IMG/VR virus record: IMGVR_UViG_3300031787_011371
Span: 9,367-73,366 of that record
DNA length: 64,000 bases
Origin: a virus
Direction: 5' to 3' (one strand)
Both the position numbers and the translations under genes were made by a program. Under the pieces are notes generated by a model that saw nothing but the letters and a program-made list of their open reading frames with translations, was not told where the DNA came from and searched no databases. Shown piece after piece: positions 40,003 to 62,937 of the stretch. Each line of letters starts with the position of its first letter. Position 1 is the stretch's first letter.

Positions 40003-40009
40003 ATTAATA

Positions 40010-42238: not shown

Positions 42239-42239
42239 A

Positions 42240-43172: not shown

Positions 43173-43175
43173 TTT

Positions 43176-44628: not shown

Positions 44629-44630
44629 TT

Positions 44631-45962
44631 TTAATTTTTTATTAGTTTAGTTACTTGATTTTCATGTATTCTATAATAAAGAAGAATGTCTTCACAAATA
44701 TAAAATTTAAAACCTTTTTCAATTGAATCTTGCCAAAGTTTTAAATCTTCCATTGGTATATCTTCCTCATTATATTTATTATTATCCCAAAAGTTTTTAC
44801 TATACGCAACACATGGATGAGCTATAACATTATGACCAACTCTTAGATTTTCTATTATTTCTCCTTTTTTTGTCATTAAAAAATCCTTAACACTTTCATC
44901 TTCATAATTATTTTCTTTTATATGAGAAAAGTTTGATGAAACTATATCATAACCTTCTTTTAATTTTTCAAATTGTCTTTCTATTCTGTTTTCTTGATAA
45001 TAATCATCTACATTAGTATTAAATACAAAATCACACCCATCCTTAAATGCTTCTTCTATAATATAATTCATTGCTTGAGCATGATTATCCATTTCAATTT
45101 TGTAAAATTTACCATTTTCAAAATGGTAATCTCCAAGAAAAGAATAATTATCATCTCCATAATTTAATTCGTAAATAAAATAGTCTTTATATGTTTGACT
45201 TACAATTGAATCAAAAAATTTCAATAACCATCTGTCATTATATATTTTTTTAGCATTTTTATGAAAAATTACTATACCAATTTTATATTTACACAAGTCG
45301 TGTTTTTTTAATAAAAAATTTATATCATATTTTTTTGTATTAAAATTACTTTTATTATGTATTCTATGCAAAACTAGTTGTTTTTTGTCATTTATAAATT
45401 TACAACTTTTTTTCATAAGTTTCAACCAAAAATCATAATCTTCTATTCCAACAATAGACTCATCCCATCCATTAACCTCTTCTGCTATTTCTTTCTTAAA
45501 TATTGCTGAAGTATTTGCCACTTGATTTACACCAGACATTGAAAGTCTTAATATTTCTTCATGTTCTAAAGAAAGATTAGGCTGACCTGTTATTTTTTCC
45601 AATTCATCACAGTAAAATATTCTAGAACCTATTACATCATATAATCCAGTGTTCGCAAGTTCTATTTGTATTTCTAATTTTTTTGGCAACCAAACATCAT
45701 CATCATCTTGTATTGCCAACCATTCTCCTTTAGCTTCTTTTAATAATTTATTTAAAGTTTTAGACTTCCCAGCATCTAAACCATAATCAAAAATTCTAAT
45801 TCTTTCATCGTCAAATTCTTTAACAATTTCTTTGCTATTGTCAATAGTTCCATTAAAACCTATTAATAACTCAAAATCTTTGTATGTTTGATTTAAAACC
45901 GATTCTATAGAACGTCTTAAATATTTTTCACCATTATAAACTGCTAATAATATTGATACCAT
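44631..45962 (-). CDS. Tandem double GT2 glycosyltransferase
   Basis: Unit 1 VSILLAVYNGE..AIQDDDD..EDYDFWL; unit 2 FNTNVDDYY..RIERQ..HP..EDLKLW..YYRIHENQ. Confidence 0.85.
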   Translation of the reverse strand: MVSILLAVYNGEKYLRRSIESVLNQTYKDFELLIGFNGTIDNSKEIVKEFDDERIRIFDYGLDAGKSKTLNKLLKEAKGEWLAIQDDDDVWLPKKLEIQIELANTGLYDVIGSRIFYCDELEKITGQPNLSLEHEEILRLSMSGVNQVANTSAIFKKEIAEEVNGWDESIVGIEDYDFWLKLMKKSCKFINDKKQLVLHRIHNKSNFNTKKYDINFLLKKHDLCKYKIGIVIFHKNAKKIYNDRWLLKFFDSIVSQTYKDYFIYELNYGDDNYSFLGDYHFENGKFYKIEMDNHAQAMNYIIEEAFKDGCDFVFNTNVDDYYQENRIERQFEKLKEGYDIVSSNFSHIKENNYEDESVKDFLMTKKGEIIENLRVGHNVIAHPCVAYSKNFWDNNKYNEEDIPMEDLKLWQDSIEKGFKFYICEDILLYYRIHENQVTKLIKN

Positions 45963-45964
45963 GA

Positions 45965-46555
45965 TTAAATATGTTTTTTTAATTCGTTTTTAACATATAC
46001 TGTATTTCCAATATGAACACTTCCGTCAGACATATGATTTATTAACATTCCATTTTCATCAGCATAATATTGATATATATCTATAAAATTTATATCATTT
46101 TCTTTACATAATTCTTTTAATATAGAATTAGCCTTAATAGTATATCTAGACCTATCTTCGTCTAAACCAAGAAATGGAAAATTTATATTTTCTATATTTC
46201 TATTCTTTTTTGAAGGTGGGGTTATGCTTAAAATTCCAATTTTTTCAAAAAATATTTTTTGACTTTTAATATGATTAACATAATCAATTATTAAACTATT
46301 TATTATTTCATCTTCTGTTAAATCATTTAATTGTATTTGATTAAAAATATGACACCTAATATCTATTTCTCCAAAACAAAAAATAACAAATGAGTTATAT
46401 GATATATCAACATTTCTACTTTTAAAAATATCATAAAAATTAATTTTATCACGTCTAACTTTATGCATAGTCATAGGCGCAATATTGTGTCTATCTTCTA
46501 TAATATTTCTAAACGAAAAATCAGAATGTGAATCTCCTATTGTATAAATTTTCAT
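45965..46555 (-). CDS. SGNH/GDSL-family hydrolase or O-acetyltransferase
   Basis: TIGDSHS (block I), FGEIDIR, DGSVH (DxxH-like). Confidence 0.7.
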   Translation of the reverse strand: MKIYTIGDSHSDFSFRNIIEDRHNIAPMTMHKVRRDKINFYDIFKSRNVDISYNSFVIFCFGEIDIRCHIFNQIQLNDLTEDEIINSLIIDYVNHIKSQKIFFEKIGILSITPPSKKNRNIENINFPFLGLDEDRSRYTIKANSILKELCKENDINFIDIYQYYADENGMLINHMSDGSVHIGNTVYVKNELKKHI

Positions 46556-47088
46556 ATTTTTTTAGCTTGAATATTTAAACTCATTAAAACTCCTTTTTCT
46601 TTTTCCATATGTGGAAGATATGCTTGACTAAAATCATCTATAGAACCATGTTCAACCGTTTTCCAATCCCAAATATGAACGTCTATAAATCCTAAACCTT
46701 CTAAATCTTCTTTTAACATATTAAAATCAAAACCAACATAATGAAAGTTTTCATTATAATTTTGACCTCCATATAAAAATCCCATCAATTGTTTAAGAGT
46801 GTATCTTTTTGTGTAATGTAACTCCGAAACTTTATATAAATCAGGAACTGATATTCTCAATATTCCACCGCTTTTTAAAATTTCATTCCACCTTTTTAAA
46901 ACATCTAGATATGTTTTTCTATTAAAATGTTCAAGAACATGACAAGCATATATCATTTCTGCAGATTCATCTTTAAAGTTTTTTAATGTTGCAACATTAT
47001 CAACAATGTCACATTCTGTTTCTGGTCTTATATCAACATTTACAAAACCATCCAACTTTTTAAAGCCGCATCCTAAATGTAATTTCAT
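46552..47088 (-). CDS. SAM methyltransferase (Methyltransf_11-like)
   Basis: KLHLGCG, VNVDI, YACHVLEHF, LKSGGILRISVPD. Confidence 0.85.
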   Translation of the reverse strand: MKLHLGCGFKKLDGFVNVDIRPETECDIVDNVATLKNFKDESAEMIYACHVLEHFNRKTYLDVLKRWNEILKSGGILRISVPDLYKVSELHYTKRYTLKQLMGFLYGGQNYNENFHYVGFDFNMLKEDLEGLGFIDVHIWDWKTVEHGSIDDFSQAYLPHMEKEKGVLMSLNIQAKKI

Positions 47089-47915
47089 ATTAAAGTTTTT
47101 ATTTTATTAATAAGCCTTTCATTGTAATCAACCCAATTCATAGCCAATCTTCTATTTATCTCTATGACATCTTTTTTGGATTCATAAAACTCAGGAGTTA
47201 GTTCGTTGCACTTTTCAATTGCCTCATTAAAAGAATTTACAATAATAATCCCATTTACATCAAAATATTCTACTATATTAGGACAGCCTATATAAATAGG
47301 AATGGTTTTGCACAGTAAACAATCTATCAATTTTTCCGTAAAGAAATTCTGCTTTGATACGTTTTCTATACATATATGAAACATACTATCAAATAGAGGT
47401 TCTTTTCGCTCTCCTAGTATAGGGTTATTTCCAAAATTTTCAACACCGCCTAATCTACTTAAAAAGAATTTTTTCGGTATGCTTATTTTATTTTGTTTAT
47501 ACCACAACTTTTGTCTTATTTTATGATTCTCCGTAATTGTCTTGTGACCACAAACCGTAGATACAGAAAACTCTTTTGGCTTATTCAAATCATATTCATC
47601 TAAATGAATCCATTTTGTTCCATATTCAAAAAGTACTCCGTTTGGTATAGCATCTAAAACTTCTTGTTCATATGTAAGCACATAATCAAAACGATTCCAA
47701 TTGTCTATAATGCGTTTATTCAAACCCATAATTTCGTTTGGCTCAATTTGAACAAAGAATTTTTTTAAAAGCCTTCTTCCTGCTGAAGCTTCAAACTGTT
47801 CAATCGTTGGATTGTCTAAATTTTGAAAATTATCAACCCAAATATCTATTGGCATTGAACTATCAAAATCATAGTTCAAGGACATGCCAAAATTAGAATT
47901 TACATTTGCTTTCAT
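47085..47915 (-). CDS. GT10 fucosyltransferase-like protein
   Basis: FHICIEN...NFFTEKL.D....TIPIY.G is the GT10 alpha-1,3-FucT motif. Confidence 0.75.
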   Translation of the reverse strand: MKANVNSNFGMSLNYDFDSSMPIDIWVDNFQNLDNPTIEQFEASAGRRLLKKFFVQIEPNEIMGLNKRIIDNWNRFDYVLTYEQEVLDAIPNGVLFEYGTKWIHLDEYDLNKPKEFSVSTVCGHKTITENHKIRQKLWYKQNKISIPKKFFLSRLGGVENFGNNPILGERKEPLFDSMFHICIENVSKQNFFTEKLIDCLLCKTIPIYIGCPNIVEYFDVNGIIIVNSFNEAIEKCNELTPEFYESKKDVIEINRRLAMNWVDYNERLINKIKTLI

Positions 47916-48598
47916 TAACCTCTTATTTCTGAATGATTTTTGTCTAAAGCTAAAAGCTTCTTTTCAAATGGTATTTGCCAAGATTCTGGATAACAATAAC
48001 TTGGATTAAGCTTTTTTGGTGGATTATCAATAAAATATCTATTCATTTGACTTTCATCATGCCAAACAGCAATAATTCCATTTTCTAAATCCTTATCTAC
48101 TCTTTCCTTTATTGTTTTTGACATTTCAAGAAAAGCTTCTGAAGTTCCTCCATTAAATCCACCAGCATAATAACATTCACCTTCTTCTTCTGAAACATAT
48201 GCTGTTGAACTTTTGTTAGTTTCATAACTTCCTCTTCTTCCTCCAAAAAATCCTGGGTGTTCTGTGCCAACAAGTTCAGTTTCTGTATCTGGGAGTATTT
48301 CTTCGTTTACATCTTCAACAAATCTCATATCAGCATCACAATAAAAAAGATAATCCATGTTAGATAGCAATTCTTTATTTTTATCAAAAACATGATAACG
48401 TTTTAATGTGGCGTAAGGCCATCCCAAATGTTCTTGTTCAATTCTAATAATGTCATCATTTTCTGGCACATTACCATCTGTAAAAACAAACATTTTAACT
48501 TCATGATTTTTCATAAAATGTTTTTTTACAGATTTATATAATGGAGGTATAAATTGAGTGTATTTACCTGTTGCAATGACTAATAAGCCTATTTTCAT
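47915..48598 (-). CDS. GT6 (ABO blood-group family) glycosyltransferase
   Basis: IATGKY, FVFTD, WP..TL.RY, YLFYCDADM, YYAGGFNGG, AVWHDESQMNRY, PSYCYPE, ALDKNH. Confidence 0.9.
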   Translation of the reverse strand: MKIGLLVIATGKYTQFIPPLYKSVKKHFMKNHEVKMFVFTDGNVPENDDIIRIEQEHLGWPYATLKRYHVFDKNKELLSNMDYLFYCDADMRFVEDVNEEILPDTETELVGTEHPGFFGGRRGSYETNKSSTAYVSEEEGECYYAGGFNGGTSEAFLEMSKTIKERVDKDLENGIIAVWHDESQMNRYFIDNPPKKLNPSYCYPESWQIPFEKKLLALDKNHSEIRG

Positions 48599-48921
48599 AT
48601 ACTATAATTTTTTTCTATTAACAATATTTGTTTCGACAAAAAAGGCATTCTATCTAAAAGCTGTTCAGTTTCAAAAATTAATTTTTTACTTGATTGTTTT
48701 AATTTCTGTATTACTTTGTCGTTTAATGTAATAATGTTTGGAGATAACATTTCTACTTTAGTTTCTCCTTCTCTTGTTGGAATTACAATTCTATGATAGT
48801 CATTTTCAAGATATATTGTTGATTCCTTTACTGTCTCAACATAAATGGCTACATCTCTTTCATCTAAATTTCCAACGTATATATAAAATACTATTACTGG
48901 TTTTGCCATAACTTTATTCAA
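48595..48921 (-). CDS. Hypothetical protein
   Basis: ORF overlapping both neighbours in operon style. Confidence 0.55.
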   Translation of the reverse strand: MNKVMAKPVIVFYIYVGNLDERDVAIYVETVKESTIYLENDYHRIVIPTREGETKVEMLSPNIITLNDKVIQKLKQSSKKLIFETEQLLDRMPFLSKQILLIEKNYSI

Positions 48922-49714
48922 ATGGTAATTCTAATTCTTGATGACATCCAACAATATTAGAAAAATCTATTTTATTTAACTTAATCTCTCTCCCAGACAA
49001 AAAATTATCATTCAATTCTTGTGCTGAAATCCCATGAAATTCACCTTCTCTGTTTGGAAATACACTTTGAACAACATTAGAAGGAGAATTTACTAATTTA
49101 CTTTGTTTGTAAGACCACATTGTTTTTTTAGGATAGTTTCCAAACATTTGTAATGCCGCCTCAAAAGTATTTGGATTTTGAAACATAACTTTTTTTGAAA
49201 GTTTATGAATTTCTTTTGTTTTAAAAATATGTCCATCAACTGACAGTGGATAGCCAAAATCCATATAATGAACTGACCAGTTCCATTTTATAAATTTATC
49301 ATCCTCATAATCAGGCATTATAACATTGTCACATCTCATAGTGTAACATTTGTTTGTATTTAAACCTAATCTCATAGAAAAACAAAAAGCGTCATTATCT
49401 GTCTCTAATTTTGAAATCATTTCATTTTCATCAACTCTTCCATAAATTATGTCATCATCAGTAAAGAATGATGTATAATTATATATTGAATTTTCTAAAA
49501 TAGCTAAAGTTTGTTCTCTAAAATCTATTTCTTTAATCCATTTTACTTCTGGGAATTGCTCCATCAATTTATTATACCCTTTTTCAAATTCATCATTTGA
49601 ATAAGTATATAAAACATTTAAAGAAAAAACTCCATTAGCATTTTTTTCAACACTATCAAGAAATAGTTTTAATTGTGCTGCTCTATCTTTTGAAAATACT
49701 ATTCCATTAATCAT
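48914..49714 (-). CDS. GT-A-like glycosyltransferase
   Basis: IVFSKDR..QL, SFFTDDDI, FGYPLSVDGHIF, NPN.FE; ATG at 49714 preferred over the track start. Confidence 0.65.
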   Translation of the reverse strand: MINGIVFSKDRAAQLKLFLDSVEKNANGVFSLNVLYTYSNDEFEKGYNKLMEQFPEVKWIKEIDFREQTLAILENSIYNYTSFFTDDDIIYGRVDENEMISKLETDNDAFCFSMRLGLNTNKCYTMRCDNVIMPDYEDDKFIKWNWSVHYMDFGYPLSVDGHIFKTKEIHKLSKKVMFQNPNTFEAALQMFGNYPKKTMWSYKQSKLVNSPSNVVQSVFPNREGEFHGISAQELNDNFLSGREIKLNKIDFSNIVGCHQELELPFE

Positions 49715-50564
49715 TTTTATTTGTTTTATAAGTTTCAATTTTTTGAAAAGGCTTCTTTTTGTTTATTTCTGAATGTATACTCCACTGAAGTTGCTGATTT
49801 ACTTTATCGTCAGAAATAGGATTTTCTCTATTATAAACATAAAGTGGAGTTTCATTATAAAAAACATGCTCTTTCCCAGCCATTTCAAGCATTGGAATAA
49901 ACATTGCAACATCATATGTCATTTGATACCAATTGCCATTAGAATCTTTCATACATGAATAATTTTCATCCTGCTCTGCAATTTTAGCATAAAGACCTGC
50001 CCTAAAAGTTCTTATGTGAGAAACTTTAAATTGAGATTTTCTTAAATCTTTAAAATCATCTTCTGTATATTCTCTCGCACAACATTTCATGCCATTAGTC
50101 CATTTTGAACTGCCATACATCATCCAACATTCTGGATTTTTATTGTAGAAATCGTTTATGTATGATAATACATCCTTTTTAAATAACCAGTCATCTCCAT
50201 CTACTATTACAACAATATCATCTGGGTCTATAGCAAATCTCATTATACCATTATGCAAATTTGGGAGTGCACTCATTCTTTCGCTTGACCTCCAAGCTAA
50301 AATATTTTGACATTTCGTTTTTTCTAATAGAGGATGTTTATATTCAACTATAGGTTCTCCGTTTTCATCTTTTAATAAATCACCATTATCATCTCCTTTA
50401 TATTTTACTGCTGGTATTTTGCTAAATGAACCATCTGTAGAACTGTCATCAATAAAAAGGATTTCGTAATTTTCATAATCTTGAGTCAAAAGAGAATTTA
50501 CACATCTGTCCAAAAATTTTCCAGGATTATAAAATGGAACTATTACTTTAATTTTATTGTTCAT
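49707..50564 (-). CDS. GT2 glycosyltransferase
   Basis: VIVPFYN, IDDSSTDGS, IVDGDDWL, SHIRTF, LYVYN. Confidence 0.85.
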   Translation of the reverse strand: MNNKIKVIVPFYNPGKFLDRCVNSLLTQDYENYEILFIDDSSTDGSFSKIPAVKYKGDDNGDLLKDENGEPIVEYKHPLLEKTKCQNILAWRSSERMSALPNLHNGIMRFAIDPDDIVVIVDGDDWLFKKDVLSYINDFYNKNPECWMMYGSSKWTNGMKCCAREYTEDDFKDLRKSQFKVSHIRTFRAGLYAKIAEQDENYSCMKDSNGNWYQMTYDVAMFIPMLEMAGKEHVFYNETPLYVYNRENPISDDKVNQQLQWSIHSEINKKKPFQKIETYKTNKND

Positions 50565-50581
50565 TTTTTATTTTGTTTTAA

Positions 50582-50612
50582 CAAACATACGATTTTTATT
50601 TAAAAAAATAAA
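50582..50612 (-). promoter_or_regulatory. Bacteroidota-type promoter for glycan cluster II
   Basis: Minus strand TTTA-N19-TATGTTTG upstream of the ATG at 50564. Confidence 0.55.
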
Positions 50613-50639
50613 TGGATAATTTAAAAAAGATTTTTTCAA

Positions 50640-50648
50640 ACTATTTAT
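50640..50648 (+). promoter_or_regulatory. Putative late promoter ACTATTTAT
   Basis: TTTTTTCAAACTATTTAT upstream of 50682. Confidence 0.55.
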
Positions 50649-52181: not shown

Positions 52182-52892
52182 TTATTCATTTTTATAAGAT
52201 TCTAATATTTTAGCAATTACTGGATTTCTTACCACATCTGTTTCTTCAAACTTAAAAATTCCAACTTCTGTCATATTTGAAAGTCTTTTTAAAGCATCAT
52301 AAAGTCCAGTTTCAGATGTGTCTCTATACCTGTCTGACTGTTCCAAATCTCCAGAAATTATAAATTTACTTTTCCATCCAATTCTTGTTAACATTGTTTT
52401 CATTTGTCTTTTGGTAGAGTTTTGAAACTCTTCTGCTATTAATATTGAATGGTCAACATTTATACCTCTCATATATGCTAAAGGCATAATTTGTATAATT
52501 TCAGATTCCATTAAATTATGAACTGCTTGTTTTCCTATAATTTTTTCAAATAAATATAGTGTTGAATAAGTGTATGGCGCCATTTTTTCCAAAATATCAC
52601 CAGGCAAAAATCCTAACTTTTCATCAGCTTCTACTGCTGGTGTTGTTATTACTATTTTATAAAATTCATTATTTGGTGATGATAATAATTGTAGAGCTTT
52701 TAACGCTGTTAGATAAGATTTTCCTACTCCTGCTGGACCTGAACATATGATTATTTCTTTGTTTTCAATCAGGTCATAAAATTCTTTTTGTTTTTGATTT
52801 TTTTCTTTAAAATAAATATCTCCTATTACTGTTTTTAAAAATTGTTTTGTGTCGTTTCCTTTTCCTTTTTTAATTGTTTTTTTGTTTGTCAT
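52182..52892 (-). CDS. phoH: PhoH-family ATPase
   Basis: GPAGVGKSYL, PAVEADEKLGFLPGD..EKM.PY, PLAYMRG, EEFQN, LTRIG, SGDLEQSD, DVVRNP. Confidence 0.93.
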   Translation of the reverse strand: MTNKKTIKKGKGNDTKQFLKTVIGDIYFKEKNQKQKEFYDLIENKEIIICSGPAGVGKSYLTALKALQLLSSPNNEFYKIVITTPAVEADEKLGFLPGDILEKMAPYTYSTLYLFEKIIGKQAVHNLMESEIIQIMPLAYMRGINVDHSILIAEEFQNSTKRQMKTMLTRIGWKSKFIISGDLEQSDRYRDTSETGLYDALKRLSNMTEVGIFKFEETDVVRNPVIAKILESYKNE

Positions 52893-52994
52893 ACAGTTAA
52901 AATTTATTTTGTTTATAAATAGTTTGATAATTTATAATATTTATTATTGTCAAGTTAATTTTACTTTATATTTATTTTTAAGAAAAAGAATTTT

Positions 52995-53942
52995 ATGGAA
53001 AAAATTACAACATCACAACTGGAAGAAATGATAAAGAATAAGTTTTTAGAAAAAGGTGTTTCTAAAGACGATATAACAAATGAAATATTAAAAAACATTT
53101 CAGAAAGAATAAAAACTGAAGTCAAGAACTCTTTGCCAACAAATGTAAATAGTGGTGGTGGAGAAATTGTAAATGTTGATATTTCTAAACAAGAAGTACC
53201 TAAAGATATGCCTGGAGAAAAGCCTGAATCTATAACTACATCTGTTGAATCAAATGAAGAATTTCAAGAGATGTATAAAAAAGAAGGAGAATTAGAAGCT
53301 AAAGAAAGAGCTTTACTTGAAAAAGAAGAAGAACTTAGAAGAAAAGAAGAAGAACTTAGAAGCAAAGAAGAAGAATTACAATATAAGCCAGAAGTTCCAG
53401 AAAAACTTGAAAACCTAGGTTGTGAAAAATTATTTGTTTTCAATGAAAACGATTTAAGTGTTGGTGCAGAAAAACTTTCAAATACTTACATGAACTTAGT
53501 TGAAGACCCAGAAAACAAAACAAGCATGAAAGACTTGTGGCTTAAAGATGGAAAAAGAGATGCTGAAGTATTTATTGTAAATTTTGAAAAAATAGGCAGA
53601 ATAGAATTTGACCCATTTGAAGGGATTTCTAATTTTATAAATGAAAAAGAAAATTCAGAATTAGAAGGTCCAACTTCAACAGATGATTATGAAAGTTCTG
53701 AAAATAATTCTAATGGTAATATGATTGACTCTATAGCGCCAGTAAAAGATGTGATTAGACCAATGTCTAATGATATGGGGCTTGATGTGCAAAATAGTAC
53801 AGGAGAATATCAAAATTTAGAAACAGGTGCATCAGTACAAAATGTAGATGAAGAAAGTTTTGAAGAATTATTAAATTCTAAATTAAAAGAAATAATTAAA
53901 AATTATTTGAGTGGTCAAATTGTTTTAGGACAAAAAAAATAA
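52995..53942 (+). CDS. Acidic coiled-coil head-region protein
   Basis: MEKITTSQLEEMIK N-term, KEEELRR repeats, C-term LKEIIKNYL; ATATTTAT at 52968. Confidence 0.5.
   Translation: MEKITTSQLEEMIKNKFLEKGVSKDDITNEILKNISERIKTEVKNSLPTNVNSGGGEIVNVDISKQEVPKDMPGEKPESITTSVESNEEFQEMYKKEGELEAKERALLEKEEELRRKEEELRSKEEELQYKPEVPEKLENLGCEKLFVFNENDLSVGAEKLSNTYMNLVEDPENKTSMKDLWLKDGKRDAEVFIVNFEKIGRIEFDPFEGISNFINEKENSELEGPTSTDDYESSENNSNGNMIDSIAPVKDVIRPMSNDMGLDVQNSTGEYQNLETGASVQNVDEESFEELLNSKLKEIIKNYLSGQIVLGQKK
53321..53378 (+). repeat. 21-bp in-frame tandem repeat (KEEELRR/KEEELRS/KEEEL)
   Basis: aaagaagaagaacttagaa repeated about 2.7 times. Confidence 0.7.
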
Positions 53943-54430
53943 TGATTAAAGAATCTTATAAAAATAGAATCAAAAAATTGGCAGGCTTAATTTCTGAAGA
54001 GGAAGTTAAGCTTTCTGCTAATACTGGTAGAAGTGATGATGGTACTTTGAGTTGGTATTCTGAAAACTATCTTCTTGATTTGGGTTCTAAAATATTAAGT
54101 GAATTAGATAATATTGTTGAAAAAGACAATTCTTTAACTTTAAAATTATTGAAAAGTTCAACTAAAATGAATGCAAATTCACTTTTTATTAGTTTATCTA
54201 TTTCTGGGTATATTGGAGAAAAAGAAATAGATGAAAATTTTGAAATAACATTATCTGTTCAATTCTCAAATGATTCCAACACTGTTTCCTCAGTTAATTA
54301 TAGAGGTGTAACAAATAGGTTTAATTTAAACTCAAAACACTCTTCTGATGACCTAAAAATGTTTGTATCAGAAGTTACTGACAATATAATGAATTCAATT
54401 AAATTGTCAAATTTAAACCCAAAATCTTAA
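53942..54430 (+). CDS. Putative capsid-packaged protein with N-terminal RIKKLAG motif
   Basis: MIKESYKNRIKKLAGLISE mirrors the scaffold C-terminus EISRMKQLAGI. Confidence 0.5.
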   Translation: MIKESYKNRIKKLAGLISEEEVKLSANTGRSDDGTLSWYSENYLLDLGSKILSELDNIVEKDNSLTLKLLKSSTKMNANSLFISLSISGYIGEKEIDENFEITLSVQFSNDSNTVSSVNYRGVTNRFNLNSKHSSDDLKMFVSEVTDNIMNSIKLSNLNPKS

Positions 54431-54454
54431 TTTTTTTTTCTTTTTTATTTATTA

Positions 54455-54485
54455 TTTACTTTATTTAAAAATAAAGGTATATTCG
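54455..54485 (+). promoter_or_regulatory. Near-consensus Bacteroidota-type promoter
   Basis: TTTA-N19-TATATTCG upstream of 54506. Confidence 0.4.
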
Positions 54486-54505
54486 AACATATTTAAAAAA
54501 CAATT

Positions 54506-54838
54506 ATGAATACTTGGAAAATTTTAAACAAATCAAATCAAGAGGTTAAGGTTGCTTGCAAAACAGCTTCTATGGCCTCAAAAGGAATAATTTTACAACC
54601 TAATGAATTTTGTATTTCAGAAGCACAATTAACAGCTTCAATGGATGCACAAGAAAGAAGAGGTTTTATTTCTGTAGACAGAAATTTTGATAATTCTAAA
54701 TTTAATCTAGAATTTGTCAAAGCATATAAAGAATCTGATTTAATTCATATGATTAACAATTTAGAATCAAAAGAACAAACTGATTTTGAAAAGGCTGCAG
54801 AAAATGCAGAAAAATATATGAATAATTCTGATAATTAA
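54506..54838 (+). CDS. Hypothetical protein
   Basis: Full ORF. Confidence 0.55.
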   Translation: MNTWKILNKSNQEVKVACKTASMASKGIILQPNEFCISEAQLTASMDAQERRGFISVDRNFDNSKFNLEFVKAYKESDLIHMINNLESKEQTDFEKAAENAEKYMNNSDN

Positions 54839-54845
54839 TTAAGTT

Positions 54846-55658
54846 ATGCCAGAAGAAAAATTGAATTACAATACAATTAACGAAGGTGTTACTGTTGGAG
54901 CAACTCAAACTGTTAATTCTAATAATTTAATTGTTTATAGTGGAACAAGTTCTGTACACAGTATTATATCTGATAACACAAATATTACTATAGGTAATAC
55001 CGATTTATTCGATAGTAATAGTACTTATGGTTCATTTTCTTTTAGTGGATATTTTAGTTGCTTTAAAATAACTGATAATTTAATTTTAAAAGAGGAAGAA
55101 AGTAATTTTTTAATTATTCCAAAAAATAATTTAGTTATTTCTTGGAGTGATAAAGATAAGACTTTCATTGAAAATGATTTAAATGAATTTATTCATGATT
55201 TAAAAAATGATAATTTTTCTGAAAAAGCTTTTGAAAATAAAACAGATAAATTTAATCAAATTTTTAGTCTATTAATTAAAATGGACGGGAATTTATATAT
55301 TGATTTAAAAGAAAAATCATATTATAGATATTCTTCAAAAAATAAATCTTGGGTTAAAATGTTTGGAGAAATTAAAAGCTTAATTTTTAGTAGAAAAAGT
55401 AATTTAAAATCAGTCAAAGAAAATAAAAATGAAAGATTCTTAATGATTGAAAAACCATTTAAATTTAAATTAAATTTTCACAAAGGAAATTCAACTTTAG
55501 ATTCTGGGTATGTTTATGTGCCATATGTGCCTTTAACATATACAGCAACAAACATTGTTAATGGAACAGATAATTCTATTGTAACAAATACTGCTATAAA
55601 TTCAAGATATTCAACTGTAACAATTAATGGAAATTATTATAATACAATAACTTTATAA
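54846..55658 (+). CDS. Hypothetical protein ending in an MCP-C-terminus-like segment
   Basis: KGNSTLDSGYVYVPYVPL...INSRYS...NGNYYNTI vs MCP KGDTFLEAGYVYAPYIPL...IMTRYA...NNRFYGVI. Confidence 0.6.
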   Translation: MPEEKLNYNTINEGVTVGATQTVNSNNLIVYSGTSSVHSIISDNTNITIGNTDLFDSNSTYGSFSFSGYFSCFKITDNLILKEEESNFLIIPKNNLVISWSDKDKTFIENDLNEFIHDLKNDNFSEKAFENKTDKFNQIFSLLIKMDGNLYIDLKEKSYYRYSSKNKSWVKMFGEIKSLIFSRKSNLKSVKENKNERFLMIEKPFKFKLNFHKGNSTLDSGYVYVPYVPLTYTATNIVNGTDNSIVTNTAINSRYSTVTINGNYYNTITL

Positions 55659-55668
55659 AATAAAATAT

Positions 55669-56901
55669 ATGTCTAAAAAAATTAAAATATTATTTAACCC
55701 TTCAGATTTGGCTGGCGTAGGTCATTTTCGTTCAATATGGCCTGCTCAAGAAATGCAAAAAAAATACAAAGAAGAATTTGATATTAAAATTGATTTGTCT
55801 CCAAATTTTAATGATTTAGAATCTTTAAAAAAATATGATATAATTCATTTCCATAGACAATTTGGACCAATAGAAAGGTTGGATGAAATCTTTGATACTT
55901 TAAAAGCTGCTGGGGTAACCATGATAATGGATATAGATGATTATTGGTCTCCACCAAAAGAACATCCAATGTATTATGTTGCTTTAAAAGAAAAAATAGA
56001 AGAAAAAATAGTTAGTACAATGAAAAAAGCTGACTATGTAACTACTACTACAGAAATTTTTAAAAAAGAAATCTTAAAATATAACAAAAATGTCATAGTA
56101 ATTCCTAATGCTATTGATACAAATCACAAAATGTGGCAACCAGACGATTCTAATAAAATTGATGGAAAATTAAGAATTTCTTGGATTGGAGGTTCTTCTC
56201 ACTTAGAGGATTTAAAGCTTGTAGAAAATTCTATGTCTAAATTAAATTCAAATGAAGAATTAAAAGGGAAATACCAAATTGTGCTTTGTGGTTTTGACAC
56301 AAGAGGTCATATAACAGAGATAAATCAAGCAACTGGTGAACAAAGAACTAGAAAAATAAGACCAGAAGAAACTGTCTGGAATAAATTTGAAAAGATTTTT
56401 ACTACAAATTATAAAATAGTTGATGAGAATTATAAAAAGTTTTTAGATTCTTATAAAAATGAAAAATATTCTGATGATTTATCTAACTTAAACTACGTAA
56501 GAAGATGGACACTTCCTCTTACGCAGTATGGGAAACATTATCAATATTGTGATGTATGTTTAGCACCTTTAGTTGAAAATACTTTTAATAAAGTAAAATC
56601 AGAACTTAAAATAATAGAGGCTGGTTTAACAAAAAAAGTTTTAATTGCTCAAGATTATGGTGTTTACAAAGAATTAATTGAAGATGGAGAAACAGGATTT
56701 TTAGTTGAAAAATCTAGAAATCATAAAGATTGGTATAAAAACATTAAGTACTTAATTGAAAACCCTAAAGAAGTTGAAAGAATTTCTAATAATCTATATA
56801 ATTTTGTGAAAGACAAATATAATCTGGAAAATGTTACAGAAAATAGAGTAGGGTTCTATAAGGAATTATATAAAGAAAAGAGTTTAGTTGATGTGGATTA
56901 A
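55669..56901 (+). CDS. GT-B (GT4-like) glycosyltransferase in the head module
   Basis: GVGHFRSIWP, MDIDDYW, VIPNAID, WIGGSSH..DL, LAPL..N.FN..KSELKIIEAG. Confidence 0.8.
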   Translation: MSKKIKILFNPSDLAGVGHFRSIWPAQEMQKKYKEEFDIKIDLSPNFNDLESLKKYDIIHFHRQFGPIERLDEIFDTLKAAGVTMIMDIDDYWSPPKEHPMYYVALKEKIEEKIVSTMKKADYVTTTTEIFKKEILKYNKNVIVIPNAIDTNHKMWQPDDSNKIDGKLRISWIGGSSHLEDLKLVENSMSKLNSNEELKGKYQIVLCGFDTRGHITEINQATGEQRTRKIRPEETVWNKFEKIFTTNYKIVDENYKKFLDSYKNEKYSDDLSNLNYVRRWTLPLTQYGKHYQYCDVCLAPLVENTFNKVKSELKIIEAGLTKKVLIAQDYGVYKELIEDGETGFLVEKSRNHKDWYKNIKYLIENPKEVERISNNLYNFVKDKYNLENVTENRVGFYKELYKEKSLVDVD

Positions 56902-56936
56902 AATTTTCTTTCATATTTATTCTAAAAAGATTTACA

Positions 56937-57755
56937 ATGAAACAAGTTAGCTTAAATTTTGGCGCAATAAAAGATACGGTTTATAGACTTTCCGCTAAAG
57001 AATTAATGAGTGAATCTAAAGAAATAAAAGAAAACAACTCATTAAAGAAATTTATTAAAAAAATTCAAGAAGAACCTTTATTAAAAGTTCAATATATGAT
57101 TTTTGAAAATTTAACAAAAGGTCATTTTGAAAATGAAAGATTAGCAGAAAGATATATAAATGAAAATTTGTCTTTAGCTGAAAAAATAAATTGGCATAAA
57201 CTTTTAGAGTGCAACAAAAAAGTTAGAAAAGAGATTCTTGATGAAAACTTTGTTCAAGGTACAAAAGAATTTGAAGATTTATATGAAGCAATTCATACAT
57301 TAATAGAATCTAGAAGTAAAATAGGATTTACTGACATAAACAATTCTCACAAATCATTTGAAAAAGTTCTTACTCATTTACAAAGAGAAATTAATGAAAA
57401 TGCAAGAACTGAAGAAGAAAAAAATGATATGCCTAACTTTTTGTCTTGGAGATATATTAATGAACATGCTGTAAGTAATTTCAATAAAAGATATAAGCAT
57501 TTAAATGAATCAGACAAAAAACTGTTTAAAATCTTAGTTTCTTCTGATAGCATAAAAATTAACTATGCAAAAGATTTAAAGAATGAGAGTTTAGAAATGA
57601 TTCAAAACTTATTAGATGATGATGCTGATTCTGGATATTTATTAGAAAATTTTAAAAACAAACTAAATTCTATAGAAAATATAGATAAAAACAATGTTGA
57701 TGAAATTATAATTAATTGTCATGAATTAAATGAAAATCTTTTAAAATTACAATAA
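56937..57755 (+). CDS. Helical head-module hypothetical protein
   Basis: NFG.IK, FNKRYKHLNE.DK pattern; ATATTTAT at 56913. Confidence 0.55.
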   Translation: MKQVSLNFGAIKDTVYRLSAKELMSESKEIKENNSLKKFIKKIQEEPLLKVQYMIFENLTKGHFENERLAERYINENLSLAEKINWHKLLECNKKVRKEILDENFVQGTKEFEDLYEAIHTLIESRSKIGFTDINNSHKSFEKVLTHLQREINENARTEEEKNDMPNFLSWRYINEHAVSNFNKRYKHLNESDKKLFKILVSSDSIKINYAKDLKNESLEMIQNLLDDDADSGYLLENFKNKLNSIENIDKNNVDEIIINCHELNENLLKLQ

Positions 57756-57756
57756 A

Positions 57757-58140
57757 ATGAAACTGGACAAAACAAAATTAAAGCAAATTATTTCTGAGGA
57801 AATTGAAGTATTCAAAAATAAAAAAAGAAGTGAATATATTTTGGAAAATTTAGGTCTTAATGAAGGTAAAAAAAGTGACCCAAAAGCCAAAGTTAGAAAT
57901 AAACCTAATCCAGTTTTTGATGCAAACAATCCAAAAGTAAAAGACAATAAAGACCATTTTCCTTTAGGGGATGAAGACCAAGCTAGAAATGCTCTAGCAA
58001 GAGCAAGTCAATATAAAAAAGTTCCAGATTGGTATGATGGTGATTTGGAAAGTTTAGTAAAAAAAGTTCAATCAGCTGTTAAAAAGGCGTTTCCAAATAT
58101 AGAAACAACTGAAAAGTCTGCTAATCCAGGAAAAGGATAA
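57757..58140 (+). CDS. Putative capsid-packaged small basic protein (DUF6582-like motif)
   Basis: N-term MKLDKTKLKQIISEE, GLNE site, then HFPLGDEDQARNALARASQ. Confidence 0.5.
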   Translation: MKLDKTKLKQIISEEIEVFKNKKRSEYILENLGLNEGKKSDPKAKVRNKPNPVFDANNPKVKDNKDHFPLGDEDQARNALARASQYKKVPDWYDGDLESLVKKVQSAVKKAFPNIETTEKSANPGKG

Positions 58141-58142
58141 TT

Positions 58143-58170
58143 AAAAGGGAGTTTAAAAGTTCCCTTTTTT
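58143..58170. terminator. Bidirectional terminator between convergent genes
   Basis: AAAAGGGA-gtttaaaagt-TCCCTTTTTT. Confidence 0.65.
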
Positions 58171-58171
58171 A

Positions 58172-58738
58172 TTAGTCTTTTTTCCTTTTATGTATAGTAA
58201 AATCTAAATTGCCTTTTAATAAATCTGAATTTGCAATAATTTCACATACTTTTTTTGCTTCATTAAATAATATATTATCTTCTTTATCATTTAATGGATA
58301 TTCTTTTTCACAATTATCCATACAATTTAAAGTGTGTATATTTAATTCAATAGATACAAAACTTCTTTTGTCATTATAATTTATGTTTTCAGGAAAATCA
58401 TAAACAAATATATTTTCTAAATAAAATGGGAATACAAAATTATTTTCCAGAAAATTTTTTAAATCATTTCTATATATTTTTCTTATACCATAAGATAGTT
58501 TTTTAGATAATTCATAATCATAATTAAAAAAGGAATATTTATCATAATAATTTTCTTTATCTTTTACATCTATCCAAAAGCTCGTTTCTATAAAAATAGT
58601 TTCTGGCTTTTCTTTATTAAAAGTAGTACCTATTTTAAAGTTTGCATTGCAATTATTAAAATATTTACCATCAATTTTTATTTCTTTTCCTGTTCTTTTA
58701 TTTGTTATCTCTAATGTGTCATCATTAAATAAATCCAT
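58172..58738 (-). CDS. Hypothetical protein
   Basis: Full ORF opposite the head genes; near-consensus host-type promoter CTTG-N20-TATAATTG upstream. Confidence 0.55.
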   Translation of the reverse strand: MDLFNDDTLEITNKRTGKEIKIDGKYFNNCNANFKIGTTFNKEKPETIFIETSFWIDVKDKENYYDKYSFFNYDYELSKKLSYGIRKIYRNDLKNFLENNFVFPFYLENIFVYDFPENINYNDKRSFVSIELNIHTLNCMDNCEKEYPLNDKEDNILFNEAKKVCEIIANSDLLKGNLDFTIHKRKKD

Positions 58739-58835
58739 TTTATTTTATTAATATTCATTTAATCGCTACATGTTTACAATTATATAATTTTTTTTTAATT
58801 AAAACAAGTTTTTTAATTAAAAAATTAAAACATCA

Positions 58836-58855
58836 TTTTTTTCTAACTATTTATA
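58836..58855 (+). promoter_or_regulatory. Putative late promoter (TTTTTTTCTAACTATTTAT)
   Basis: 19-nt element identical to the one at 59538-59556. Confidence 0.65.
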
Positions 58856-58882
58856 GGTGTTAAATATTTAATAATAAAAAAA

Positions 58883-59518
58883 ATGAGCAATTCAGATAAA
58901 TACGTAATATCCGAATTTTATGCTTTTCAAGCTGATTCAAAATTGATAAAAGAAGCTGAAGAAAAGCATCAGCCTATAGTCATGAAAGGTATTCTTCAAA
59001 AGGCTAATACAGAAAATAGAAATGGTAGAGTTTACCCTTTGGATATATTAAAAAGAGAAGCTAAAAAATACGAAGAAGCTGTAAGAGAAAGAAGAGCCAC
59101 TGGCGAATTGGACCATCCAGATTCTGCTGTAGTAAGTTTATCTAATGTTTCTCATATGGTTACAGAAATGTGGTGGGATGGCGATACTCTTATGGGTAAA
59201 GTTCAAATATTAGAAACTCCTTCTGGTGAAATATTAAAAGGCCTTTTGAAAAGTGGAGTAATGTTAGGTATTTCTTCTAGAGGTGTTGGTTCTGTAAAAA
59301 ATAAAAATGGTCTTGATGTAGTTCAAGAAGATTTCGAGCTAATAGCTTTTGACTTTGTTTCATCACCTTCTACACCTGGGGCTTATTTATTTAAAGAAGG
59401 AAGAAGTTGGGGATTAACTAAATTAGATAAGTCAAGTTCTAAAATTTTAAAGCCAAACGAAATTAATAATTATAACAATTTAAAAGAATTATCCGATAAA
59501 AGTTTTTGGAAAAAATAA
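58883..59518 (+). CDS. Prohead core protease, T4 gp21-like
   Basis: NRNGRVYP, GELDHP (His), GISSRG.GS (Ser), FDFVSSPSTPGA (Asp). Confidence 0.93.
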   Translation: MSNSDKYVISEFYAFQADSKLIKEAEEKHQPIVMKGILQKANTENRNGRVYPLDILKREAKKYEEAVRERRATGELDHPDSAVVSLSNVSHMVTEMWWDGDTLMGKVQILETPSGEILKGLLKSGVMLGISSRGVGSVKNKNGLDVVQEDFELIAFDFVSSPSTPGAYLFKEGRSWGLTKLDKSSSKILKPNEINNYNNLKELSDKSFWKK

Positions 59519-59537
59519 TATAAAAAATAGAATTTAT

Positions 59538-59556
59538 TTTTTTTCTAACTATTTAT
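59538..59556 (+). promoter_or_regulatory. Putative late promoter (TTTTTTTCTAACTATTTAT)
   Basis: Identical copy of the element upstream of the protease. Confidence 0.65.
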
Positions 59557-59592
59557 CGTTAAAACCTTTCATTAAAAGTAAAAATAATAAAA

Positions 59593-61020
59593 ATGTCTGA
59601 AACTAAAAAAACATCTCTAGAGAAAGCAATATTAGAGGCTAGAGAAATAGAAAATGCAGCCATTAACAGTGCAAAGAAAATTGTAGAAGAATCTATTATT
59701 TCTAAAATTGAAGAAACTGTTAAAAGTGCTTTAACTGATTTGGAGAAAAATTCTTTAAATGAAGGAGTGTCAATAGACGTTGGTGGAGCTGACGTTTCTT
59801 TTGATGTTGAAGATGGAATTACATCAATTAAAGTTGATGCTGATGAAGAGGATTTAACAATTACTCCTACTGAAGATGAAAACGAAGATGATGAAAATGA
59901 AGTTGAAAACAACGAAGATGAAAATGACGAAGTTGAAAACGACGAAGACGAAAATGATGAAGACGAAAATGATGAAGATATGGAAGGTGAAGAAGAACAA
60001 TTGTTTGAAATAAATCTTTTCGAAGAAGAATTGCCTGCTGCACCAGAGGCAACTGAAGCTGCGCCAGCAGAAGAAATGCCAGCAGAAGAAATGCCAGCAG
60101 AAGAAGCGGGTGCAACTGGTATGACAGTTGAAGTTCCTACAGCTTCAGCTATTGAAGATTTATCTGCAAAATTAGATGCTATTCTTTCAAAATTAGAAGC
60201 TCCTGCTGAATCAGCTGAAGATATAAATGCTGAGCCAGCTGCTGCTACAGAAGCAGGCGAAGAGGCACCATCAGCTGAAGGTGAAATAGAAATAGTTGAT
60301 GATGAAGCTGTTGTTACAGAAAATAATCTATTAGAAATTGATATAGTAGGAGAAGATGATGATAATGAGTTTTCTTTTGAATTAGATGATTCTGAAGAAA
60401 ATTTTGAAGATGATTCTGAAGAAGATGATGATGAAATAAATGATATTTTAAATACTTTAAATTCTGAAGAAGATTTTGAAGATGAACCATTAGATGAGAT
60501 GAGAGGTGCAAGTCACAGTGTTCAAAGAGCTTTTGGCAACAGAGAACATAGAGCTGATGACGGACACCATTCACCTATATATGTAAACGAAAATAAGGCT
60601 CAAGAGGAGGCTGTAGTGGCTGAGCTAATTAAGGAAAACGAAAGTTTAAGAAAATCCCTAAAAGAGTACAAAGAATCATTCAAAGTACTCAGAAAACAAA
60701 TTAACGAGGTTCAAACTTTTAATGCAAAGTTAGCTTATGTTAACAAGTTGTTCTCAAAGGGAGGTTTAACTAATGACGAAAAAGTACAAATCGCTGAAAG
60801 TTTTGATGAAGTGAACACTGTTGAAGAAGCAAAAACACTTTACAATAAAATTATAAGCGAAAGTAAAACTTTTTCAAATAGTAAAACTGAACAACTAAAA
60901 AGCAAGTTGAAGTCACCAAATCCAAATGTTGCACCTTCTACGAAATCTGAAGCTTTATATGAAAGCAGAGAAATTTCAAGAATGAAACAATTGGCTGGTA
61001 TAGAAACCTTGAAATCTTAA
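59593..61020 (+). CDS. Prohead scaffold protein, gp22-like
   Basis: Between protease and MCP; highly acidic middle; C-term coiled coil NEVQTFNAKLAYVNKLF...FD.V....EAK..Y and RMKQLAGI. Confidence 0.8.
   Translation: MSETKKTSLEKAILEAREIENAAINSAKKIVEESIISKIEETVKSALTDLEKNSLNEGVSIDVGGADVSFDVEDGITSIKVDADEEDLTITPTEDENEDDENEVENNEDENDEVENDEDENDEDENDEDMEGEEEQLFEINLFEEELPAAPEATEAAPAEEMPAEEMPAEEAGATGMTVEVPTASAIEDLSAKLDAILSKLEAPAESAEDINAEPAAATEAGEEAPSAEGEIEIVDDEAVVTENNLLEIDIVGEDDDNEFSFELDDSEENFEDDSEEDDDEINDILNTLNSEEDFEDEPLDEMRGASHSVQRAFGNREHRADDGHHSPIYVNENKAQEEAVVAELIKENESLRKSLKEYKESFKVLRKQINEVQTFNAKLAYVNKLFSKGGLTNDEKVQIAESFDEVNTVEEAKTLYNKIISESKTFSNSKTEQLKSKLKSPNPNVAPSTKSEALYESREISRMKQLAGIETLKS
59872..60105 (+). 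repeat. In-frame low-complexity repeats in scaffold (END/EDE units; 15-bp PAEEM x3)
   Basis: gaagatgaaaa(t/c) units at 59872-59980; ccagcagaagaaatg repeated at 60064-60105. Confidence 0.7.
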
Positions 61021-61049
61021 CAAACAAACAAATTTAAAATTAAAAAAAA

Positions 61050-62615
61050 ATGAGTGAATTATTAAACAGCGGTAATGTTGGTTTGACAACTCTAAGAACT
61101 CTTTCAGAACAAAGAAAAGAGATTGTTGGAAACTGGGAAAGGTCTGGACTTTTAGAAGGTCTTAACGGAGCTAAAAAATCAAACATTGCTCAATTATTAG
61201 AAAACCAAGCGTCTCACATGTTGAACGAAGTAACGCTTGACTCTTCTGCAGGTCGTTTTGATACTGTAGCATTCCCTATGGTTAGAAGAATCTTCTCAAG
61301 ATTGCTTGCTAACGAAATCGTTTCAGTACAGCCACTTGCTCTTCCTTCAGGACTTTTGTTCTATATGGATGCAAGAGTATCTACTAACAAAGTAGCTCCT
61401 GCTAACACTGCAAACGGACAAGGTGGACCTTCATTTGCTAGTACATCTGCTTACGAAAGATTCTATGATAACAGAGGTTATGATGCTTCTTTTGGTACAG
61501 GAGAAACTAAGTATGGTACTCCAATCGCTTATACATCTGGTTCTACTGAATTAGTATCTGGTCTTGTTACTGATACTTTTGCTTTAGGTGCTACTTTTGA
61601 TGTTAACAAGCAGCAATCAAGCTCTTCGCTTAGATTCTCTGCAGTAACTAACGTTGTATATAACAATACAGTTGTTTATACTGCTGGTGATAGCGTTAAG
61701 TTCTACTCTCAAATGCAGACTTGGGGTGAAGACCAATTTGCTTCTCAGCAAGCTAATGTTATTCTTGACATCAGACCTGCTGGAGTTTATGGTTCTGACT
61801 TTGATGATAGCTTAGTTGCTAACTTTACAGTTGTTCCAGCTTATGAAGTATTCAATGACCTTGAAGCTAAATCTGAAATGAGCGAACTTACAATCAGATT
61901 CTCTTCTGTAACTGTAAACACTGTTACAAGAAAAATGAGAGCACACTGGACTCCAGAACTTGCTCAAGACCTTGAAGCATACCACAGCATTGATGCTGAA
62001 GCTGAGCTTACTGCTCTTCTTTCAGAAGAAGTTGCTGCTGAAATCGACAGAGAAATCATCAGAGACCTTATCAATGGTGCTATGTTCGAAACAAGATGGG
62101 ATTATGCAGGTTTAAGAAACAATGCTAACTTCTTCGGAACTCAGAAGGACTGGAACCAAACTCTTATCACAAGAGTGAACGAAATTTCAGCTCAAATCCA
62201 CAAAGCAACTCTTAGAGGTGGTGCTAACTGGATTATCTGTTCTGCTGAAGCTGGTGCAATCTTTGATGACCTTGAGTACTTCCACGTAGATGGTTCAGCA
62301 CAAGCTGAAACTGAGAAGTATAACTTAGGTATCGAGAAGATTGGTAACCTTGGAAACAGATATGTAGTCTACAAAGACCCTTACATGCCTGCAAACATCG
62401 TTCTTCTTGGACACAAAGGAGATACATTCTTAGAAGCTGGTTATGTGTATGCACCGTACATTCCGTTACAACTTACACAAACTATCTATGACCCTAACGA
62501 TTTCACGCCTAGAAAAGGTATCATGACTCGTTACGCTAAGAAGATGGTTAACAACAGATTCTATGGAGTTATCATCATCGATAACATCAATACTTATCAG
62601 CAAGTTTATAGCTAA
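61050..62615 (+). CDS. Major capsid protein, T4 gp23-like
   Basis: LLENQA, FPMVRR, VSVQP...PSGL.FY, RKMRA.WTPELAQDL.A.H.IDAEAEL..L...EIDREI, GY.YAPYIPL, P.KG.MTRY. Confidence 0.96.
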   Translation: MSELLNSGNVGLTTLRTLSEQRKEIVGNWERSGLLEGLNGAKKSNIAQLLENQASHMLNEVTLDSSAGRFDTVAFPMVRRIFSRLLANEIVSVQPLALPSGLLFYMDARVSTNKVAPANTANGQGGPSFASTSAYERFYDNRGYDASFGTGETKYGTPIAYTSGSTELVSGLVTDTFALGATFDVNKQQSSSSLRFSAVTNVVYNNTVVYTAGDSVKFYSQMQTWGEDQFASQQANVILDIRPAGVYGSDFDDSLVANFTVVPAYEVFNDLEAKSEMSELTIRFSSVTVNTVTRKMRAHWTPELAQDLEAYHSIDAEAELTALLSEEVAAEIDREIIRDLINGAMFETRWDYAGLRNNANFFGTQKDWNQTLITRVNEISAQIHKATLRGGANWIICSAEAGAIFDDLEYFHVDGSAQAETEKYNLGIEKIGNLGNRYVVYKDPYMPANIVLLGHKGDTFLEAGYVYAPYIPLQLTQTIYDPNDFTPRKGIMTRYAKKMVNNRFYGVIIIDNINTYQQVYS

Positions 62616-62642
62616 TCAGTTATAAATTGATAGATAGAAATT

Positions 62643-62672
62643 GAGGTCAACATTAGTTGACCTCTTTTTTTT
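62643..62672 (+). terminator. Rho-independent terminator after MCP
   Basis: GAGGTCAAC-atta-GTTGACCTC-TTTTTTTT. Confidence 0.88.
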
Positions 62673-62676
62673 CTAT

Positions 62677-62937
62677 TTAATTTTCTTTTTTAATAAATCC
62701 ACATTCACGTAAAAAACCTTGTCCTACTGGTGAGCCTAACCATTGAATTGTAGAAATAACAATCTTTTTTTCATGTTCAGTAAGTCTATTTGCTGGAAAA
62801 TTTCCATTACTATCTCCCATGCCAAACACTAAAAAATCCATATCATTATGATTGTGAGAATTGTGTTCAATAAATTTATCATGAAACTCTTTCTCTTTAG
62901 GATTACTTTCGTGTCTATAAGTTTTAAAACCTTCCAT
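62677..62937 (-). CDS. Small hypothetical protein
   Basis: Full ORF; ends IQWLGSPVGQGFL. Confidence 0.6.
   Translation of the reverse strand: MEGFKTYRHESNPKEKEFHDKFIEHNSHNHNDMDFLVFGMGDSNGNFPANRLTEHEKKIVISTIQWLGSPVGQGFLRECGFIKKEN

Follow-up and report, generated by a model that had tools for sequence, protein, structure and literature searches.

A 270-amino acid (aa) protein of a large uncultured T4-like phage ends in a segment that, judged from sequence comparison, is a true homologue of the end of the phage major capsid protein (MCP). The protein belongs to an undescribed family of 18 that reuses this sub-domain fragment of the capsid protein, a variation on a theme already known from capsid-protein paralogues and head accessory proteins. 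It is encoded at 54846–55658 on the plus strand of the window, i.e. the 64-kb stretch analysed here from a 73-kb record, and is referred to below as the target (P0001). Based on the CheckV completeness of this record (23%) and of the 32.8-kb record that carries a related locus, L003 (10%), the phage genome is probably ∼320 kb. The window carries baseplate wedge genes, PhoH, a sugar-biosynthesis/glycosyltransferase island and a protease–scaffold–MCP module. Its MCP has Flavobacterium phage immuto as the nearest cultured phage (35% identity) and shares ∼34% identity with the MCPs in two records of uncultured phages (484 and 595 kb). Public runs containing DNA of the phage were mostly labelled freshwater or 'fungus' metagenomes. 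Within the structural region, a long run of genes assigned by PHROG to nucleotide-sugar epimerases, methyltransferases and glycosyltransferases occupies ∼30800–50600 on the minus strand. This run resembles the glycosyltransferase-rich hypervariable islands of pelagimyophages (PMC7029224), although the MCPs of the two are not close.

Homology of the tail to the capsid protein

Both the target and a gp23-type MCP (61050–62615, plus strand; 521 aa; Pfam Gp23, E = 2.4e-75) are present as the initial annotation had described them. That annotation, made from the sequence alone, had proposed that the last ∼60 residues of the target resemble the MCP end, and the alignment that we obtained extends further than it had seen. 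BLASTP aligned target residues 193–270 with MCP residues 433–510 (62346–62579, plus strand), with 26 of 81 positions identical (E = 1e-9). An insignificant alignment would have undone the proposal, but the Smith–Waterman score of 112 was reached by none of 1000 whole-protein shuffles (39.0 ± 5.8, maximum 77) and by none of 1000 shuffles of the last 80 aa of the target (33.1 ± 5.1, maximum 60), and hhalign comparison of the family with MCPs gave a probability of 97.5% (E = 7.4e-12). In addition, a profile made from the last 86 columns of 40 MCPs (the MCP-tail profile) scored 47 bits on the target. The Pfam Gp23 model (PF07068) matched target residues 213–260 with E = 1.4e-4 and 21.9 bits, which is under the curated cut-off of 24.4 bits, and the match spans only positions 308–351 of the 376 in the profile.

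From the alignment, hhalign and the MCP-tail profile, the MCP-derived tail was delimited to target residues 198–270 (55437–55655, plus strand). It is made up of five strand segments homologous to MCP 437–510, with a hypervariable loop (aa 231–250) between them. In this segment, 41 MCP columns are conserved at 90% or more, and the target matches 18 of them; the C-terminal P-domain hairpin motif GYxYAPYxP...RY is present. The T4 gp23 and gp24 chains in the PDB align with the MCP of the window, and this stretch corresponds to T4 residues 446–478. T4 residues 455–461 form part of the P-domain sheet and P loop in the map given in PMC9546572; this map and our alignment together suggest that the tail consists of the P-domain hairpin plus the strands before and after it. 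The rest of the protein had been described as lacking capsid similarity. In agreement, the score of target residues 1–192 was matched by 140 of 1000 shuffles, and a profile of MCP residues 1–429 gave −0.6 bits on the target and a maximum of 1.8 bits across the 18 family members.

At the DNA level, the target tail and the MCP gene had no similarity beyond 9-nt words, and tail GC3 was 0.09 compared with 0.41 for the MCP segment. A recent copy of the phage's own MCP gene is therefore ruled out, and the DNA dissimilarity and GC3 gap indicate an old, ameliorated copy rather than a recent duplication. A chance or remnant origin is likewise ruled out, since the tail is kept in 16 of 18 diverged family members and its strands are the best conserved.

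The target belongs to a plus-strand block that sits directly 5′ of the head genes, in a gene order that is the same in L003. These head genes encode a gp21-type prohead serine protease (58883–59518, plus strand; Peptidase_S77, E = 1.1e-32), an acidic scaffold-like protein in the gp22 position (59593–61020, plus strand; assigned by position and composition only, with no family match) and the MCP. Within the block, two co-oriented ORFs of 162 and 110 aa (53942–54838, plus strand) precede the target and are conserved and syntenic in L003, a GT4-type glycosyltransferase gene (55669–56901, plus strand) lies directly 3′, and a terminator-like hairpin of 11 pairs with a T run (58143–58168, plus strand) closes the block. 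The target start codon is 7 nt past the end of the preceding 110-aa ORF, and the simplest reading is co-transcription with the upstream ORFs.

The initial annotation had placed the target behind a near-consensus host-type promoter, which our analysis did not bear out. The sole plus-strand site just upstream (54786–54815; TTGAAA-18-AAAAAT) has 9 of 12 matching positions and is internal to the preceding ORF, an 11/12 site at 54720–54693 lies on the minus strand, and sigma-70-like sites in 52800–62800 occur at chance frequency (56 found, 50.4 ± 6.5 expected). The same annotation had reported that no late motif precedes the gene, and indeed the phage's own recurrent motif, TCTAACTATTTAT, is absent there. 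Exact copies of TCTAACTATTTAT at 58842–58854 and 59544–59556 (plus strand) precede the protease and scaffold genes by 30–45 nt, and one-mismatch copies at 50636–50648 (plus strand) and 52915–52927 (minus strand) lie before two other genes. With up to two mismatches there were 19 sites, compared with 12.0 ± 3.5 expected, and we regard TCTAACTATTTAT as a candidate phage promoter motif. The T4 late-promoter word TATAAATA was uninformative (24 sites, 19.7 ± 4.5 expected), and its copy at 52914 is the phage's own minus-strand motif in reverse. GC3 of the target was 0.10, compared with 0.28 for the MCP, which suggests low expression. Among the matches listed, freshwater metatranscriptome contigs were identical to the window over 59582–62537 (scaffold and MCP), so an RNA library contained this phage or one nearly identical to it, with DNA carry-over possible; no identical contig among those matches covered the target, which has no bearing on its expression.

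Family architecture and divergence

An exhaustive HMMER search of 1.84 billion representatives returned 23 proteins at E ≤ 1e-3. From this search, a profile search and one locus, we assembled the family of 18 (226–301 aa). Full-length HMMER matches extended to E = 5.0e-13 for P0002–P0008, and weaker ones to 4.8e-4. Other searches found few relatives: a word-based protein search returned only the target, and the profile search returned 7 proteins. In the phage GenBank collection, the target, P0007 and P0010 were unmatched by tblastn and a 4.2-kb region was unmatched by blastn, and none of the 7 ORFs tested from the immuto head region matched the family profile (best E = 0.15). In IMG/VR, scans with the target protein alone or with P0023 gave no match, and a scan with an alignment (A1) gave one true family locus, L003. 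A metagenome scan gave 527 relatives, and nearly all of the 80 that were kept were ordinary MCP ends.

The members share an Asn/Ser/Thr-rich N-terminus, a central domain with NFLI..W and DGNxYIDL..YY motifs, an LLxEK junction and the MCP-like tail. The MCP-tail profile matched 16 of the 18 at E ≤ 1e-4, and Pfam Gp23 matched 5 at E ≤ 0.01. No tail was detected in P0011 and P0012, and P0020 and P0027 end shortly past the PYVP strand, i.e. they are without the C-terminal half of the tail. Mean pairwise identity in the family was highest in the tail strands (aa 198–230; 0.45), followed by the central domain (0.30), the N-terminus (0.21) and the tail loop (0.17). The tail strands are therefore the best conserved region, which indicates that selection acts on the capsid-like strands. 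The retained hairpin core consists of L..GYxYAPYxP, RY and Y (kept in the 18 members: G 15, P 16, Y 16, P 15, R 14 and Y 13). Hardly any member retains the MCP residues of the P loop and the AKK patch, and loop length ranges from 5 to 31 residues. On this pattern of conservation, selection acts on the residues that form the hairpin fold but not on those joining capsomers in T4, which argues against a lattice position like that of a capsid subunit.

The target is the most diverged full-length gene of the syntenic block. Compared with L003, identities were 89% for the MCP, 85% for the protease, 78% for the glycosyltransferase and 47–70% for the other block genes, i.e. 47–89% for nine of the ten genes compared, and only 30% for the target family member; the tenth, a 127-aa ORF, aligned over its first 29 residues only (48%). 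A tree of tail columns (58 columns, 61 rows) was poorly resolved and did not separate one origin from several. In it, 39 of 40 MCP tails formed one tight group, the target was not beside its own MCP, and the family tails lay outside the MCP group on branches that were long relative to those of the MCPs. Such fast divergence and long tail branches are typical of exposed or arms-race proteins.

The N-terminal segment (target aa 1–71; 54846–55058, plus strand) spans 36–90 residues across the family. It is acidic (pI 4.05), 43% Asn/Ser/Thr and modelled with low confidence. Motifs of the type x-[TS]-[IVL]-small occurred 12 times in this segment compared with 3.4 ± 1.8 in shuffles, a figure that may be inflated by kinship among sequences that share the motif by descent. 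In contrast to this segment, AlphaFold run with the 18-sequence alignment gave a confident model of a compact alpha/beta domain for aa 72–197 (55059–55436, plus strand), with eight strands and two short helices (10-residue block mean pLDDT 68–92 over residues 71–190). The tail was modelled poorly (block means 40–53 from residue 191). Modelling from the single sequence gave a mean pLDDT of 33, too low for use. The central domain received neither a name nor a fold from Pfam, PHROG, NCBIfam, PDB, BFVD or ESM Atlas. Apart from Gp23, the target had no match in Pfam, PHROG or NCBIfam, and its neighbours matched nothing in NCBIfam. A Foldseek search with the better model gave nothing at E ≤ 0.001 in the PDB or BFVD, neither the family profile nor the tail alone matched a PDB sequence at E ≤ 10, and ESM Atlas provided no lead (best feature score 0.85, TM ≤ 0.31). 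A wide VIA-align search listed 25 chains at Z ≥ 2 and none at Z ≥ 5; several of the weak rows were phage neck proteins, in the noise range, including the best (Z 3.5, neck of phage 812), and no capsid protein was listed.

These models bear on whether the target could be a diverged gp24-like vertex protein with a complete HK97 fold, a possibility that the initial annotation had raised against its own proposal. No spine helix or E-loop region of HK97 type was detectable, either in the model of aa 72–197 or with the MCP 1–429 profile, and none of the structure searches matched a capsid protein. As aa 72–197 are modelled confidently without HK97 features, a full gp24-like protein is unlikely on the model, in which residues 1–71 and the tail are poorly resolved. 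This fold evidence is purely negative, as a fold may be present without yielding a match. T4 gp24 (PF07068; PDB 1YUE) is like the target in its descent from the MCP, its retained C-terminal segment and its place among the head genes. However, gp24 keeps the whole HK97 fold (the MCP of the window aligns with it over residues 274–497), whereas the target keeps only the ∼75 last residues, with an unrelated domain in front.

We also weighed a much reduced gp24 analogue, in which the central domain would be an unrecognisably diverged HK97 remnant, and consider it very improbable. In its favour, gp24 is itself a gp23 paralogue that retains the C-terminal segment. Furthermore, some T4-like phages have no gp24, and what makes up their vertices is under debate (PMC2984593 and PMC4621102), and the 73-kb record has no second full MCP paralogue, although it represents only ∼23% of the genome and a true gp24 may lie elsewhere. 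The MCP 1–429 profile was, however, silent in 18 of 18 members, the confident model of aa 72–197 has no long spine helix, the wide structure search listed no capsid protein and had a neck protein as its best match, and the T4 intercapsomer P-loop residues are not kept, in a loop of 5–31 aa.

Candidate roles at the phage head

The initial annotation had offered three functions for the tail, namely a decoy, an assembly modulator and a tether. By its anatomy the target fits a tether best, because a variable N-terminus is joined to conserved C-terminal strands. The reading that we favour, tentatively and at less than even chances, is that the target is a three-part accessory or decoration protein of the head, with the capsid-derived beta module as its anchor. 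The capsid-derived strands would dock the protein onto the capsid-protein lattice or capsomers via beta-sheet-type contacts, and the variable N-terminal parts would point away from the shell in a Hoc-type layout. The neighbouring glycosyltransferase may modify the Ser/Thr/Asn-rich parts of the target. Several observations are consistent with this: the conserved strands combined with variable N-terminal parts, the head-gene neighbourhood preserved in L003, the fast divergence with long tail branches, and the acidic, Asn/Ser/Thr-rich N-terminus encoded beside a conserved glycosyltransferase gene.

Hoc of T4 provides an established layout for head decoration, with a conserved C-terminal anchor and variable outer parts. 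As described in PMC10385173, it resembles the target in having variable outer parts and a conserved C-terminal part, and in being acidic and fast-diverging. The two differ in the anchor, which in Hoc is a four-stranded sheet with a three-helix bundle that follows Ig-like domains and is unrelated to the capsid protein (PMC10385173). The target has no Ig or Hoc match, and its candidate anchor is a capsid-protein fragment. We found no precedent in the literature for a decoration protein derived from such a fragment. To our knowledge, capsid-protein paralogues have been known only as whole folds, e.g. gp24.

Other observations argue against a decoration protein. The tail was modelled only at block means of 40–53, and in the capsid protein these strands belong to the subunit's own core and form no known interface. 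The low GC3 of the target suggests low expression, two of the 18 members have no detectable tail and two more lack its C-terminal half. Prediction of a complex between the MCP (alignment of 40) and target residues 72–270 (alignment of 18) gave ipSAE 0.00 in both runs, which speaks neither for nor against binding.

A feature that fits less well with decoration lies at the junction of the domain and tail. Of all columns in the alignment of 18 members, only that of Glu202 (codon 55449–55451, plus strand) is invariant, with Lys203 coming close. The glutamate ends a hydrophobic-x-E motif that reads L/I-x-E in 16 of 18 members and M-I-E in the target; in T4, cleavage by gp21 follows Glu in L/I-X-E (PMC9026906). 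These residues would be better explained if the target were a prohead-targeted protein, with the capsid-like tail taking it into or onto the assembling prohead and the gp21-type protease cutting after Glu202 and so freeing the N-terminal 202 residues from the 68-residue tail. We consider this unlikely, though better placed than a reduced vertex protein. A gp21 homologue is encoded 3.2 kb downstream of the target, the MCP keeps an invariant L-N-E at residue 60, and I-S-E-E is found within the first 20 residues of the 127-aa (57757–58140, plus strand) and 162-aa (53942–54430, plus strand) ORFs of the block. The 127-aa ORF, which has only its first 29 residues in common with its L003 counterpart, resembles a capsid-targeting peptide followed by variable cargo.

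The T4 internal proteins and Alt, which have a capsid targeting sequence and are processed by gp21, are like the target family in combining a conserved short element with hypervariable cargo. Against processing of the target, T4 internal proteins are basic, unlike the acidic N-terminus of the target. In addition, the motif is short, the target itself has M-I-E rather than L/I-x-E, and the putative site falls in a strand homologous to one that is not cut in the MCP. The position of the conserved element also differs: in T4 the targeting sequence is a short peptide at the N-terminus and binds the scaffold core (PMC3012670), whereas the conserved element of the family is a C-terminal 70-residue module derived from the capsid protein.

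Free and permuted tails in other loci

The initial annotation had asked whether a profile search would find MCP-tail modules elsewhere. Such modules do recur, both fused, in the family of 18, and as free ORFs of 81–95 aa. The near tail-only proteins are P0014, P0018, P0019, P0021 and P0023 (81–95 aa) and P0017 (124 aa), and they matched the MCP-tail profile with E-values of 2.4e-33 to 2.1e-13. One source marked P0018 as a complete gene, and the small tail proteins are found on contigs of up to 22 kb. Frames bearing the motif numbered 167 in 166 loci. Only 17 were under 380 aa, 11 of them cut by contig ends, and the six complete short frames were the target, two family members, a compact 366-aa MCP and small ORFs in loci L088 and L100.

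In L100 (1515–2619) and L088 (5516–6622), a tail ORF (95 and 83 aa, respectively) is followed immediately by an ORF of 274 or 283 aa. The latter contains the E-loop-end and spine-helix region of the MCP (profile positions 327–398) and then the N-terminal region and N-arm (positions 3–134). Each pair thus consists of permuted capsid pieces without the insertion and A-domain parts. In P0022 (220 aa, on a 1.6-kb contig), a single chain combines a piece like the MCP N-arm, the MCP tail and a piece of the MCP N-terminal region. No paper describing capsid-fragment proteins of such kind was found in our literature search. Both cassettes are preceded by an ORF (234 aa in L100, 298 aa in L088) that by eye is like the N-terminal half of a GIY-YIG ORF in a further locus, L084, where it sits downstream of the MCP. 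L084 also contains a 635-aa ORF (3169–5076) whose two ends resemble, by eye, a gp21-type prohead protease interrupted by an insert of ∼400 residues. The insert starts with Cys after ADHPD and ends with HWTGN before Ser, and by eye it looks like an intein.

The free tail ORFs and permuted pairs occur in non-structural contexts, which is a point in favour of the target being a soluble capsid mimic outside the virion. It would act either as a decoy for a host sensor of the capsid protein or as a modulator or chaperone of capsid-protein folding or assembly that binds whatever the capsid P-domain hairpin binds. This is in our view about as improbable as processing in the prohead. Only a sub-domain fragment of the fold is kept, divergence is fast, and GC3 is low, unlike that of the structural genes. 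In T4, mutations that bypass gp31 fall in the sheet of the P domain and in the spine helix (PMC9546572), suggesting that this element matters for folding. Conversely, the target lies among head genes with no visible promoter of its own, and searches of Pfam, PHROG and NCBIfam gave no defence or anti-defence signature. A fragment that resembles a trigger could also set off a sensor as easily as block it. The link to Lit that the initial annotation had drawn is weak, because the trigger of Lit is in the N-terminal part of T4 gp23, outside the tail segment.

More broadly, it is possible, if doubtful, that the last ∼75 residues of T4-type MCPs are a portable, self-sufficient capsid-recognition module, to which phages fuse cargo and which other elements carry in free or permuted forms. 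The family, together with the free and permuted tails, would demonstrate that pieces of a capsid protein can be used as modules. Were the tail to dock onto capsids, as in the decoration reading that we favour, it would provide a natural, sequence-defined tag for display on T4-like heads, and proteins of this kind would be candidates for the unexplained extra densities on the capsids of T4-like phages without gp24. If the target is instead a soluble mimic, it would represent a new way to interfere with capsid assembly or capsid sensing. Should the tail prove to be a portable module, large T4-like phages would attach variable cargo to it so as to decorate their heads or load them, and other genetic elements would bind or subvert T4-like capsid proteins with mini-proteins or permuted pairs.
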